This document shows positions 24,001-30,000 of a stretch of DNA of 64,000 nucleotides, in pieces. The stretch's first letter is position 1, and every line of letters begins with the position of its first letter. Source of the DNA: Minisyncoccota bacterium (GTDB lineage: Bacteria > Patescibacteriota > Minisyncoccia > Phycocordibacterales > JAQTLZ01); NCBI GenBank assembly GCA_028714635.1, contig JAQTLZ010000003.1, positions 85,237-149,236 on the forward strand, read 5' to 3'. Position numbers: made by a program.

Positions 24001-27000
24001 TAGGTAGTTGCGTCCGATTCTGTATCATCAACGATTGTACCCCACACGCTATCAACTGGTGATTCACGGTCGATTCTATAACCGGTAATTTCATCGCCCC
24101 CATCATCCTCCGGAGCTGTCCACGAAAGATGAACATGCGATTGAGGAAGGGCGGTTACAGTAAGAGATGTCGGTACTCCCGGTACGGTGTCGGCCGCAAT
24201 ACCGTTCATTGTTTTTGAACCGGTGACAGCAGAAATGCCATCATTCACAGCCGTTGCGATAGTGAAAGTACTATTGTAATTGGGCGCCGGAGTGAAAATG
24301 ACACCGGCAAGAAGTCTATTGAGGGAAATCCTTGCGCCGTTCGCGTGCCATTGCCCGGTCTCGGGATTATAGGTTGATGTGACCAAACCGGACGTAGAAG
24401 TACTCAAACTTCCTGCTTCCGGGTCAGAAAGTGTTAAATACGCTTGGAGGCTCAAACTGTCATCAGTTATAACAATGTCGGTAAGATTGAGCGGAGTGTC
24501 CTCGGTGTACGTTTCGGGTGCGCTAAGGTTCGATGCGCTCGGGGCGCCGTTTACAGCATTAATGGTAAAACTCACGTTATCAGTCACTGACGAGAATGCC
24601 GTCGAACCACCGTTGGTGGTGGTGTCGGCAGTGCCTCCATCAGTACCGCTGGTTTGGTCCCATGCGCGGAATGTCAGAGCATCCGGAAATGTACCGTCCG
24701 ACACAGTTTTCTGGCAGTAGACACGATTATCTGAATCGGCGGCAAGAAGGCGCGTCGTTGTCGCGGAAGGCGTACCGAATCCATGCCAAGTCGTACCGTC
24801 ATCAAGCGAATAGTGACAAATAAGGTCAGCACTATTAACAGCTGTGACGGCAATCCCCAGAAGCGCTCCGTCATCAAGATCGTTGACGTTATCAAGCCCG
24901 GGTGAATCCGGAAAATCCACAAGATCTGACACGAGAGTACCTTGAATGTCCCCCGGCGCCCCCGGCTGATAGATTGCAACCATTGTAGGACTCGCCACAG
25001 CATCGAGAACTGGGGCAGTGTTTGGGATAGCTTTTGCGAACTGCGGGGATCCAAAAACAAAGACGATTAGGAATAAAAATAAAAATCCCTTTTGAGCAAA
25101 TTTCATGTCCTTAAAAGTATACAGCAAAAAAGGAAAGAAGGGGGTGTGAACAACAATCACCCAGGGAAATTAGCTGAAAATACTGCCGAAAAAACTTTTT
25201 GTTTTGCCCCAGAATGTTTTTGGCTTTTCATTTGGAGGAACATATCCCATTGGCAGAACTGGTTTCAGAGGTTCAATCTTCTTTCCATCGTAAGAAATTC
25301 CTTCCAGTTTCTTGCGCGTGAATTCAAGTTCTAAAAGCCTTCCCACTTCTGCACTTTCAGGATTGAAGCTATAGAATTTTGCTTTTTTCGGGTATGTTTT
25401 TATAAAACCTCTGATAGCCTGTTCGATAACTTGTTCTTCGGATTGTTTTCCTCCTTCGCCTATGACAATGCGCGCTACTTCTTTAAAAGCAGGGTCGTCA
25501 AACGGATCAGGATAGATTTTCTCTTTCTCTGGCACGCCAAACTCTTTTTCGCGCGACGGGCCATTTTCCCAACGTTTGTTAGCAAATCTAATAAAGTTAG
25601 GATCTTCGTTTGGGTTGTAAGAGGCTTTTCGCCTCTCCTCTCGTAAAGTTTTTTCGTCAAAAACTGGAGCAACATCTATTTTTTCAGGAACAATTTCATC
25701 TTCCAAATCATCTGCTGTTTTGATATCGAAATTTCCTTGTTCGAGAGACATAAAAATGTGTTGTTATTAGGAGTAATTATAGTCCCAAAACGCCCAAAGG
25801 AGCAATGGGCAAAATGTAACAATTTCTAATAGAGAACGTCATATATTTGCAGACGAAGCAAGTGGTACAATAGAGATGTGCCTAGTATTAGCTTAATTAA
25901 TAATTTAATTACATAAGTATGAAGACAAAAATAGTATTTATTGGAAGTGCCCTCCTTCTTTCGGGAGCACTTTTCTCGGTTGTGGGAGCCCAAGGACTTG
26001 GCGTTAAAGTGGATACAAATGTTGGAGTCGAAGCACAGGGTAGTGGCGTGAGTGCTTCAACAGAAACCGAGGTTCACGGTAACGCAACGAGCAGTGCTGC
26101 AAAGAATGAAGATCGGGGCAATGCTACAAGCAGTGAAGCGAAGGAAAACAACGAAAACGCCTCAAGCACAAGCAATGCGGGAGGAAGTGTCACAGCAGAA
26201 GCACACCGAAGTACGGTAGCAACTTTCGTTAAGACGCTTCTCGCTGTCGCCGATAGAGAGGGCGGTATCGGAGCGGAAGTGCGGGCAGTGGCTCAAGCAC
26301 AGAATGATTCTGCAACAACTACAGCGTCTGCAATGGCGAAGGTAGAAGAAAGAGGAGCAGTGCGAACATTCCTCTTTGGAAGCGACTACAAAAATCTCGG
26401 CGTCATCCGAAGCCAAATCGCAGTAACAAGCAATAACATTGATCGGCTCAAGAAACTTCTCGACAGAACAACAAGCGTAGAAGCTCGGGCAGAGCTGAAC
26501 GCACAGATCCAAGTACTACAAGATGAACAAGTAAAACTGGATGCGTTTGTAACAGCTCACGAAGACACTTTCAGCGTCTTTGGGTGGTTCGTGAAGCTAT
26601 TTCAGGAATAATTTCTTGTCAGTTTTAGATGAAGAAAAAAACACCCTGATTCAACGGGGTGTTTTTTTCTTCATCCTATTTTTAAATTTACTTTGTCGTC
26701 TTGCCGAAGATAAGCCGTGCTGCTGCACCAAGAGCAAGAAGAACGAGTGCTCCAAGAATATACGAAGTATAATTTTTCGTAGCACTTCCTCCCTCCGCAG
26801 CCACATCTTTCACCACTACAGGTGTTGCTGTTGTCGAAGCTCCCTGAACTGTGCTGTTCGTTCCCCCAGCAACAGAATTATTTCCAGAAACTGTCGCATT
26901 TGAAATTGTAACCTGAACTGGCGCGCCTCCATTGCCAGAAAATACATTTTTGTTTTGAGCGTTATAGATCTGTGTATCGCTCATAACTCCAATAGAAGCT

Positions 27001-30000
27001 GTACCTGATTTGAGCGCAGTAAATGTTACTGTACCGAAAACCTTGCTAGTCGATACTCCTCCGGGATATCCAGCAGTCTTTATAACTAAGCCTGAATCCA
27101 TACTGTCGTAGCCTGGTTGCGAAAGCGGGAGCCATACGGGAGCAAAATTAAACGCCGTAGCCTTCAAAAGATCTTTCGAATAAGAAAGAACAACCTTCGA
27201 AGTATACACATTCTCCCCTGCAGGATTTACTGAAACCTGTACGGCAACTGTCTGACCAGCTTTCACATTGAACGTTGAAGGAGTAAGAGAAACATTAGCA
27301 GCTGCAGAAGCAAAAGCTGGAACAGCCACCGCAAGAACGATAAAAGAAAAGATAATTTTTTTCATATTATTTTGCCCAGTTAATGAGTAATTGATTAAAA
27401 TCCAAAATATCTACGACGCCATCGCTGTTGAAGTCTGCAGAATTATTTGTTCCCTTCTTCCCCCAATTTACGATAAGAAGATTGAAGTCGAGGATGCTGA
27501 AGGTATGAGCACCCAAAACTTTTCCTGATCCTCCGGAAGAACCGCCACCGGATGTGTGACGAGCTGGTGTAGGAGATGGAGTTGGTGTCGCTTCAGGAGT
27601 AGGCGAAGGTGTCGGCGTCGGGGTAATTTCTGGGGTTGGACTTGGTGTTACCTCAGGAGTGGGTGTGGGAGTAACTTCCGGTGTTGGAGATGGGGTGGGT
27701 TCTGGCGTCACGGACGGCGTGGGGCTTGGTGTCACTTCAGGAGTTGGCGTTGAAGCTGGAGCGGGATCGTTTAAAGTAATGGTACAAGTTTTTGTCTCAT
27801 CTTTGATGAAAGTTCCTGTACAATCTTCCGAAAAACTTTTTGTATAGTCATGGGTGTCTACGACATCGATCGTATAGCTTCCGGGATGAATTTGAAAAAG
27901 TTGTCCAGGATCCTCTTTCCCTGCTGCGTTGCCACTGGTTACAGAATCCTTTGATCTGGTCTGAAAGCTAGGAGCAGTAAGCGTACCGGAATTGTCATTA
28001 ATAACATGAGTAACAACATGAAGCTTCCCACTGCAAGGAGCGGAATTGCTAGAGTAATCGGTTACGTATGAATCCCCCGAACTATGTTCAAGAATCGCTG
28101 TTGCTACGCAACCAACAATATACTTGTCCGGAGTGGTAGAGAGAAATCTAAAATCATTTGCCCCAGAAGAAAGCGGTAGAAAGTTTGGATTAATAATAAC
28201 ATCTGATTCACTTGTGTGGAGGACGATGCGAACTCTGTACGTACTAATATCAGCAGATGCTGTCAAAAATCCTGAAACGGATATAGCAACAGGGTCGGTG
28301 CCGGCAGTGCTTGAAGTAATGAATACTCTGGGCAAGATAGTAGTTGCTGATACTGTATGGGCAAAAGCAAATATAGCAATAGCAAGAAGACCTACTGAAA
28401 TCAATTTGTAACTTTTCATAATTTCGTTTAAATATTGATAAAAGGCATTAAAAAAAGGCTCTAAAGAGCCATAAAAACAGATTCGTGTCTAACAGTACTA
28501 CTATACACTAACAAATATAAAAAGTCAACTAATTCTCCGAATGGGGAACCAGGCTGTTTTGAACACTACCCGCACGAGAAAATTATTTTTCTGTAGTACT
28601 CTTCATACTGCGCGACGATTTTTTCAGAGCAAAAGCTTGATCGGGCCCGTTCTTTTGCATTTTCGCCAAGTTTTTTCACCAAAGTTTCATCATGGGAAAG
28701 TTCCAGAAGCTTTTGTGCAAAATCATCCACCTTCCCCACTCCAAATAAATATCCTGTTTCGCTGTCTTTCATAACTTCTCCAATTCCACCAGCATCTGTT
28801 GCAAGCACCGGCTTGCCATACGACATCGTCTCAAGAATCCCCATTCCAAAACTTTCAGTCTCTGACGTGTAGATACCAATATCAGCGGCATTAATATAAT
28901 TTTCGATGTCGAGGACATTTCGTTTTATAATTATCTGGTCGCCTATGCCTAATTCCTCGACAAGAGATTGAAAGGAAGCAAAATCAGCTCCTGCAAGAAT
29001 AAAGAGTTTAATTTTCTTATTTTCTTTGACTTTGCCGAGAATCGCCAAAAGATCAGGAATTCTTTTTACTTTTCGCAGATTAGAAAGATGAATTGCTAGG
29101 AAATCTGTACTGGCCACCCCGATCTCTTTCCTCACTTCCTCGGTGCTTTTTGTTATTTTCTTTGGAGTATAGAAATTATGAATAACCTCGATGTGTTTTT
29201 TGGTATCAAGATTTTTTATCGTATCTTTTTTCAAACTTTCTGAAACTGCCGTAACTCCGCACGAACTTTCAATAGAATACTTGATAACTGGCATCACTGT
29301 TTTGTCCAGCGCGAGAAGGGTAATGTCAGTGCCGTGAAGGGTCGTGATTATGTTTGGAAAAGGAATCTTTTCCTCGTCTGCAATATCTTTCGCCAGAAGT
29401 GCCGCAGTGGCATGTGGCACGGCATAATGCACGTGTAAAATATCGAGCTTGAATTCTTTACATACATCCACAATCCTCACTGCAAGTGGGAGCGTATAAT
29501 CTGGGTATTTAAAAAGCTCGTGGCCGTTGAAATCAACTTTATGAAAAAAGATATTCGGTAATTTCCTATCGAGCGCGAAGGGCGGATCATAGCTTAAAAA
29601 ATGAACTTCGTGTCCCCTCTTTGCGAGTTCGCTTCCAAGCCCAGTCGCCACAATCCCGCTCCCGCCGACGGATGGATAGCAGACGATTCCTATTTTAAGA
29701 GACTTTGAAGTCTCCTTCTTTGAAGTAGTAAAAAATCCCATTTTAATAATTTCTCGCGGAAGAACCCAGTTGAGACAGAGTATTGGTTCGAATCGCATCG
29801 TTCACCCAAAGTATTGTTGCATATTTGACATCAATCGAGGCGCCGTAGGCTTTTGCACGGCTTTCGATCATATTCATATAATTTTTTGTTTTCATCTGAC
29901 TTTCATGGAGCGCGACAGCCTTCATCCATGTATCATACTGCGCCGAAACATCGATAATGATATCGGGTTTTTTCTCGAATCCATGGCTTGATGGATAAAA

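Follow-up and report, generated by a model that had tools for sequence, protein, structure and literature searches.

A 64,000-nt stretch of a Minisyncoccota genome (contig JAQTLZ010000003.1 of assembly GCA_028714635.1, forward-strand positions 85,237 to 149,236; called the window below) carries on its minus strand a gene for a membrane protein resembling a cohesin (A), directly preceded by a gene for a secreted protein that ends in a dockerin-like tail (B). Do these two genes encode a socket and its plug, and if so, what is the pair for? Most members of the candidate phyla radiation (CPR; Patescibacteria) have not been cultured, and they live in attachment to other cells, with surfaces made up of proteins without known function. 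Hidden Markov models (HMMs) built from relatives detected a single cohesin and a single dockerin in the window. Drawing on the predicted fold of A, the recurrence of the gene pair across Patescibacteria and the existence of natural single-chain fusions, we propose, with a probability of about 0.75, that B and A form a dedicated two-gene operon for displaying proteins on the cell surface, in which a membrane cohesin would serve as the socket and a dockerin as the plug. The coordinates of all parts are collected in Table 1.

The predicted cohesin fold of A and the dockerin-like tail of B

The structure of A was modeled with AlphaFold2 on an alignment of 70 database homologues. The model reached a mean predicted local distance difference test (pLDDT) value of 85, with an all-β core at residues 22–158 (above 90), a disordered stalk at residues 159–199, and a helix at residues 200–223. 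In the fold check that the original prediction had set in advance as its own test, a Foldseek comparison of this model with the PDB, all of the best 42 matches were cohesins (E down to 2e-8; template modeling score on the target, TMt, 0.72–0.78). They included type I (C. acetobutylicum, C. cellulolyticum), type II, type III, and non-cellulosomal cohesins (C. perfringens, Archaeoglobus fulgidus). Since no helix or flap insertions are predicted in A, its cohesin is type-I-like. Both open reading frames (ORFs) lie where the original prediction had placed them, and the signal peptide, the β-rich domain of about 140 amino acids (aa), and the C-terminal transmembrane (TM) segment that it had described for A are borne out by the sequence and the model. 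The relationship of A to cohesins is visible solely through the fold comparison and through Pfam matches on some family members: the Cohesin model (PF00963) matches 25 of the 70 homologues (E ≤ 0.01; best 4.3e-10), and a single-sequence search of the PDB sequences with A returned noise and no cohesin.

The membrane anchor is shared by the family, as 117 of 122 members carry a TM segment with a short positive tail, consisting of a hydrophobic 19-mer and then about nine residues with a net charge of about +4. Sorting motifs ahead of the C-terminal hydrophobic segment were found in almost none of the 122 sequences (LPxT[GASN] in one, PEP in two, PGF in none), and a hidden sortase or exosortase signal on A, of the LPxTG, PEP-CTERM or PGF-CTERM kind, was rejected. 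The invariant residues of the family are Y54/T55, W78–D87, K96–G103, and G121–A123; with strands assigned by their order, these residues might fall in β3, β5, β6, and β8. Cohesins bind dockerins on the 8-3-6-5 sheet, and such a placement would be an indirect hint of binding. In an exhaustive profile search, the anchor family comprised 621 representative clusters when the cut-off was E ≤ 1e-30 and 1,337 when it was E ≤ 1e-10; nearly all of these proteins are 225–290 aa long, with one cohesin each.

The tail of B aligned with those of 60 relatives, whose consensus shows both loop-helix segments clearly: D-x-N-x-D-G-K-V-D-I-L-D-F-N-x-L-M-V-N-W-G for repeat 1 and D-F-N-x-D-G-K-V-D-I-L-D-F-N-L-L-M-I-N-W-T for repeat 2. 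The second segment of B has a canonical Ca loop with its helix, and this loop is the sole match to a dockerin-type Ca-loop pattern in the six frames of the window. In the first segment, Lys and Ala stand in place of the Asp residues that the family conserves at loop positions 1 and 5, and only the helix and Asp12 are kept. The canonical dockerin announced by the original prediction thus holds for repeat 2 but not for repeat 1; the assignment as a dockerin holds for the family, in which Dockerin_1 (PF00404) matches 40 of the 60 cassette partners (E ≤ 1e-3; best 1.1e-11). The same loss of loop-1 ligands was seen in loci L001, L045, and L053; taken together, losses of loop 1 or loop 2 recur in a few loci besides the window (L045, L053; L002, L012, L035). 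The tail profile matched the PDB dockerins 5lxv_B, 2jnk/2ozn, and 2y3n_B at about 1e-5. In the model of a homologue in which both modules are fused (P0085), two helices follow the loops, no entering helix is present, and the preceding residues are disordered. We assign the tail to the dockerins because of this loop-helix topology, its placement at the very end of the protein after a flexible linker, and the linkage of its gene to a cohesin gene.

The remainder of B is built from a signal peptide, an N-terminal orphan domain, a SpaA_2-type prealbumin-like domain, and a Pro/Thr-rich (PT) linker. The orphan domain (residues 26–130) had no Pfam match and no homologue beyond the sister genome. The SpaA_2 family (PF19403), weak on B itself, is present on the homologues P0073–P0080 (E 1.2e-31 on P0073). 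Single-sequence PDB matches of B, such as circumsporozoite protein, were rejected as low complexity of the PT repeats. A stalk domain of SpaA_2 type, a long PT linker, and an orphan tip domain make it plausible, as far as sequence features go, that B is adhesin-like, as had been suggested. One homologue, P0074 (442 aa), contains three SpaA_2-type repeats homologous to the middle domain of B together with a C-terminal Pfam cohesin; it combines a cargo-type domain and a cohesin in one chain without a dockerin, and comes from a sample related to that of the Methanoperedens-labelled P0073.

Recurrence of the gene pair in Patescibacteria

One genome per prokaryotic species was scanned with a 12-sequence alignment of the A family as query. 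A-type proteins were encoded at 71 loci, almost all of which carry Patescibacteria names (Paceibacterota, Parcubacteria, Wolfe-, Yanofsky-, Jorgensen-, Nealson-, Kaiser-, Azam-, Magasanik-, and Nomurabacteria, and others). Sixty-eight loci, the window among them, offered 400 nt or more of sequence upstream and were usable; in these, dockerin tails were searched for by regular expression and then by HMM. In 63 of the 68 loci, the cohesin gene is directly preceded on its own strand by an ORF ending in a dockerin, and the number rises to 67 of 68 when fused, masked, and frameshifted versions are counted. The original prediction had regarded an adjacent two-gene cassette as rare, which is wrong for Patescibacteria, where cohesin–dockerin adjacency is a lineage-wide rule and not a rare curiosity.

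The gaps between the two genes mostly range from −16 to +50 nt, and overlaps of 13 or 16 nt are frequent. Among the exceptions to adjacency, the two ORFs of L056 are merged by masked Ns, the dockerin gene of L038 is frameshifted, and L066 and L069 are true single-ORF fusions; in L037 alone, the upstream gene is unrelated. Locus L070 holds a cohesin fragment only and is not a full family member. In the 690 kb covered, all dockerins sit in cassettes, and the ratio of dockerin to cohesin genes is about 1:1. Two apparent stray dockerins resolved into a second, divergent cassette in L040 and a dockerin–dockerin–cohesin arrangement in L062.

Some genomes have two cassettes, as seen for L031 and L032 (CP179889.1, a complete 647-kb Nealsonbacteria genome), for L040, and for L018/L049. 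In L040 the cassettes occupy 5321–6786 and 9038–10478, and the cohesin of the second has diverged strongly from the family core (E 5.5e-4). The dockerins of L031 and L032 are nearly identical, and the two anchors of that genome may therefore not be orthogonal. Three short contigs with typical cassettes are labelled Planctomycetota, Gammaproteobacteria, and Victivallales (L022, L057, and L071, respectively); they are probably cases of mis-binning and not true occurrences outside Patescibacteria. Many third-party annotation records named 'Saccharibacteria' may carry this name as a generic CPR label.

In natural fusions the two genes are replaced by one polypeptide with the order cargo, dockerin, about 13 residues, cohesin, stalk, and TM helix. 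This architecture is kept in eight protein clusters, P0085–P0092, at 42–100% identity. In the fusion subfamily, the otherwise invariant L-S-Q-P-G-Y-D loop of the cohesin is replaced (PLILGEKSS...). Judged from the sequence, the replacement may mark a loop relevant to binding, or a constraint relaxed after covalent linkage.

The upstream dockerin proteins range from 57 to 1,847 aa, with a mode of about 210 aa, and have in common only a linker and a dockerin. Among 60 partners, the cargo domains were CHB_HEX_C_1 (15), Fn3_assoc (12), β-helix/NosD (3), and S8 subtilases (3), with lamin-tail and Ig-like domains as further types, and no glycoside hydrolase family was among the top cargo domains. 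The anchor is conserved while the cargo varies from locus to locus, from small Ig-like or CHB_HEX_C proteins up to giant β-helix/Ig proteins and a few proteases, and the cargo is mostly non-enzymatic. As the upstream gene is swapped and the anchor stays, the cassette has the form of a generic socket with exchangeable plugs.

In 31 loci (L003–L067), about half of the related loci, a third gene lies 0–79 nt upstream of a small dockerin gene (about 210 aa). Its product is a surface protein of 500–1,700 aa with Ig-like repeats and a right-handed β-helix, and without a dockerin of its own; the window locus has no third gene. Elsewhere, it is the dockerin protein that reaches giant size (up to 1,847 aa). 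That some loci have giant dockerin proteins and others a separate third gene suggests that genes have split or fused and that the small dockerin proteins act as adaptors. A C-terminal domain of about 130 aa (GW.W.F.VTVPTNET.LSMKF...) is conserved among some of the giant proteins.

Proposed surface display and the alternative readings of the pair

A functional link between A and B is strongly supported. Adjacency is preserved across deep divergence and with unrelated cargo, stop and start codons overlap, the genes occur at a 1:1 ratio, and Rosetta-stone fusions exist; the functional pairing suggested from the window alone draws strong support from the adjacency and the fusions. We infer direct cohesin–dockerin contact by analogy to the cellulosomal, C. 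perfringens, and archaeal pairs, for which binding is established; Ca dependence and any binding by the cargo would be further predictions. In the mechanism that we propose, A and B would both be exported by Sec. A would stay behind as a type-I membrane protein whose cohesin faces outward and is joined through the stalk of about 40 aa to one TM helix, which is followed by a short basic tail on the inner side. B would be released and then caught through its C-terminal dockerin by the single cohesin of A, probably in a Ca-dependent manner, so that its SpaA_2-like and orphan N-terminal domains would project on the PT linker of about 75 aa. Because the first repeat of B has lost its Ca ligands, a single binding mode, in one orientation only, would be expected.

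Several results weigh against the proposal of a cohesin socket with a dockerin plug. In A itself, PF00963 had no match even at E ≤ 1, and NCBIfam had none either; the A-family profile found no cohesin by sequence in the PDB. B scored 14.3 bits (E 0.049) against PF00404, below the cut-off of 22.9, so that the Pfam check proposed with the original prediction failed on the two window proteins and succeeded at the family level. The tail profile matched calmodulin EF-hands (2e-6 to 2e-5) and dockerins equally well, so that no more than a paired EF-hand-type Ca site can be read from sequence alone. The degenerate first Ca loop of B may, by analogy with some dockerins, weaken folding or binding. The model of the natural fusion P0085 has folded domains and a predicted template modeling (pTM) score of 0.42. 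The 40-aa stalk of A may not clear a cell wall or surface layer (S-layer). Finally, adjacency and fusions prove a functional link and not a direct contact between cohesin and dockerin.

The main alternative is that A and B are functionally linked without a classical interface; the dockerin could, for example, be a Ca-stabilised EF-hand module that binds wall glycan or another partner, and A a separate, co-expressed Ig-like surface or carbohydrate-binding protein. Apart from the equal scores of calmodulin and dockerins, it draws on the match of cohesin-like β-sandwiches to adhesin domains (CLIPPER domain 9ifr, at rank 40), and on the dockerin protein of Southlakia, which has no adjacent cohesin and has been proposed to target host glycans. 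However, without direct recognition the strict 1:1 pairing is hard to explain, as every dockerin in the 690 kb adjoins a cohesin and the cargo is unrelated. Furthermore, the 42 best structural matches of A are true cohesins, and the tail has the topology of known dockerins, namely two loop-helix repeats without entering helices, placed C-terminally behind a flexible linker. We consider this alternative unlikely, although it is the one that survives best.

A minimal cellulosome-like enzyme complex for the degradation of polysaccharides would share the cellulosomal hallmarks of cohesin and dockerin. A few cargos do have Beta_helix/NosD (3/60) or S8 protease (3/60) domains, and CHB_HEX_C_1 and Fn3_assoc are often attached to glycosidases. 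Each anchor, however, has a single cohesin and is no multivalent scaffoldin, the gene ratio of about 1:1 does not provide many enzymes per scaffoldin, and no glycoside hydrolase family was found among the top cargo domains; the window cargo consists of the SpaA_2-like and orphan domains only, with no carbohydrate-binding module (CBM). We therefore rejected the cellulosome reading, which is very improbable. Equally improbable is self-assembly into polymers or lattices, in which proteins with both dockerin and cohesin would be linked head-to-tail, the two-gene form representing a split variant. In the fusions, no more than about 13 residues separate the dockerin from the cohesin (L066), a spacing that may not permit binding in cis and would then favor binding in trans. 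In the two-gene form (63/68 loci, window included), however, each protein has one module, giving a terminated heterodimer and no chain, and the fusion proteins keep their C-terminal TM anchor; polymerization could thus apply to the fusion subfamily and not to the two-gene form. Coincidence or an annotation artefact, with β-rich and D/N/G-rich sequences over-read as cohesin and dockerin, would account for the failure of the window proteins at Pfam thresholds, but it is refuted by the fold match, the Pfam matches in the family, the conservation in 63–67 of 68 loci, and the fusions, and we give it practically no weight.

Beyond surface display by a socket and plug, the cassette might represent a phylum-wide, previously undescribed anchoring system of Patescibacteria, with cargo exchange as a main route by which surfaces and host contacts diversify. 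We advance this wider claim tentatively, and regard it as falling short of even odds. The part in episymbiotic attachment that the original prediction gave to the pair is speculation. In practical terms, the cassette would supply a rule, valid in hundreds of lineages, for spotting surface-displayed CPR proteins from sequence, namely a protein that ends in this dockerin and is encoded before a cohesin–TM gene. The hypothesis is testable with two small recombinant domains and without culturing. Binding would extend cohesin–dockerin biology from multi-enzyme scaffolds to a membrane anchor with one plug and one socket, and the more than 600 natural pairs might find use as orthogonal connectors for proteins. 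Should the two partners not bind, their strict co-occurrence would call for a new explanation.

The locus, its neighbors, and known systems

The stop codon of B (27367–27369) and the start codon of A (27363–27365, minus strand) place the two genes 1 nt apart. The NCBI protein identical to A is annotated as 'cohesin domain-containing protein' (P0001) and that identical to B as 'hypothetical protein' (P0071), both from a Candidatus Pacebacteria (Patescibacteria/CPR) metagenome-assembled genome. A promoter-like site precedes B, and a hairpin behind A is likely to be a bidirectional terminator that closes the two-gene operon; both calls are pattern matches only, and CPR promoters are uncharacterized. 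With this site and the hairpin at its ends, the B–A pair looks like a self-contained two-gene operon.

Table 1. Parts of the B–A locus, in window coordinates, with examples from other loci in the coordinates of those loci
Feature	Position	Strand	Basis or remark
ORF B, dockerin cargo protein	27367–28419	−	350 aa; stop codon 27367–27369 included
B signal peptide, aa 1–25	28345–28419	−	read directly from sequence
B N-terminal orphan domain, aa 26–130	28030–28344	−	sole covering homologue P0072 (sister genome)
B SpaA_2-type prealbumin-like domain, aa 131–215	27775–28029	−	weak on B (Pfam E 0.006)
B Pro/Thr-rich linker, aa 216–290	27550–27774	−	about 75 aa, repeats; database matches low-complexity only
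B C-terminal dockerin module, aa 296–350	27370–27534	−	85.8 bits with cassette-dockerin HMM; repeats 1 and 2
Degenerate first Ca loop, aa 300–311	27487–27522	−	ligands at positions 1 and 5 lost
Canonical second Ca loop, aa 329–340	27400–27435	−	pattern scan and alignment with 60 partners
ORF A, membrane-anchored monovalent cohesin	26688–27365	−	225 aa; stop codon 26688–26690 included
A signal peptide, aa 1 to about 21	27303–27365	−	read from sequence (MKKIIFSFIVLAVAVPAFA then SAA); helix 3–13 in model
A cohesin β-sandwich, aa 22–158	26892–27302	−	AlphaFold2 pLDDT >90; Foldseek cohesin matches
A low-complexity stalk, aa 159–199	26769–26891	−	G/V/A/T/N/S-rich; pLDDT 55–60, no secondary structure
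A C-terminal TM helix and basic tail, aa 200–225	26691–26768	−	YILGALVLLALGAAARLIFGKTTK; helix 200–223, pLDDT about 90
Promoter-like site TTGACT-17-TATAGT	28500–28528	−	consensus scan, 10/12 matches; about 80 nt upstream of B start
Hairpin, 20-bp stem	26628–26675		between A stop and convergent gene 25919–26611
Third-gene examples	L004:756–5339; L017:841–5364; L029:155–5293		
Fusion ORFs	L066:4957–6729; L069:4573–6540		

The ORF convergent with A (25919–26611, +; 230 aa) encodes a signal peptide and a low-complexity N-terminal half. This ORF and three others of considerable size, at 38427–41102 (−; 891 aa), 41923–42912 (+; 329 aa), and 16649–17638 (−; 329 aa), had no Pfam match at E ≤ 0.001. 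Directly upstream of the B–A pair, a run of genes at 28566–32664 (−) encodes a GT4 glycosyltransferase, a PIG-L family deacetylase, a 257-aa protein without Pfam match, a PNPOx-like protein, a NUDIX hydrolase, and a DinB-family protein. The GT4, PIG-L, and DinB set resembles the biosynthesis and use of low-molecular-weight thiols of the bacillithiol/mycothiol type; thiol biosynthesis would be unexpected in a reduced CPR genome. Two large secreted proteins are encoded at 19891–22737 (−; 948 aa, with an NHL-repeat β-propeller) and at 22839–25160 (−; 773 aa, with Laminin_G_3 and fn3). Both end in a C-terminal PG_binding_1 domain, and peptidoglycan binding therefore appears as a second mode of surface attachment beside the cohesin–dockerin cassette.

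The closest counterparts of the predicted arrangement are the anchoring scaffoldins of cellulosomes and amylosomes, in which an extracellular cohesin fixed to the envelope likewise captures the C-terminal dockerin of a secreted protein (PMC11557425, PMC4611034). Those anchors are hubs for tens of dockerin enzymes, whereas here one cohesin has one dedicated operon partner, the cargo is mostly non-catalytic, CBM, surface-layer homology (SLH), and sortase signals are absent, and the hosts are Patescibacteria. Single-cohesin proteins with a non-SLH anchor in the form of a C-terminal TM helix have been catalogued in some Firmicutes, where their partners remain unclear (PMC11557425). In the naturally truncated or single-site dockerins reported from Ruminococcus flavefaciens (PMC12270676), one of the two repeats is incomplete, as is repeat 1 of B; B keeps helix 1 and loses the loop ligands only. 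A dockerin-domain protein has been reported as essential for the epibiotic growth of the saccharibacterium Southlakia (PMC10633639). We rejected this protein, SEML1_0315, as an instance of the cassette, as its neighbors are a tRNA and a hydrolase and no cohesin is adjacent.

Assembly unrelated to cellulose is also known from the toxin and glycosidase complexes of C. perfringens (2ozn, 2jh2, 2vo8) and from the cohesin of A. fulgidus (2xdh), and these non-cellulosomal cohesins were among the best structural matches of the model of A (TMt 0.78 for 2vo8 and 0.75 for 2xdh); the 2jnk/2ozn dockerin likewise ranked among the best sequence matches of the tail profile. Their modules lie inside large multi-domain enzymes and link soluble proteins, whereas here a small membrane anchor is paired with an operon partner. 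Neighboring genes of A. fulgidus reportedly carry cohesin and dockerin modules, which would be the nearest precedent for the adjacency, though not a lineage-wide one. Monovalent adaptor scaffoldins contain one dockerin and one cohesin per chain, as do the CPR fusions (P0085–P0092, L066, L069). The adaptor scaffoldins bridge two cohesin–dockerin types, whereas the CPR fusions add cargo and a TM anchor, with the dockerin placed about 13 residues before the cohesin. Display by sortase/LPxTG or by peptidoglycan binding in monoderms has the same end result, an adhesin-like secreted protein held on the surface; in the CPR cassette, the attachment is predicted to be non-covalent and in trans, through a protein socket.

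Full-text literature searches gave no description of a CPR cohesin–dockerin cassette, although a 2009 survey of non-cellulosomal modules was not covered and a prior mention is possible. The modules and the principle are familiar, unlike the two-gene rule that runs through the lineage and its value for interpreting CPR surfaces. The cassette differs from the known systems in its dedicated 1:1 operon partner, in its conserved anchor with freely exchanged, mostly non-enzymatic cargo, in its occurrence in Patescibacteria at a scale of hundreds of clusters, and in its fused forms.

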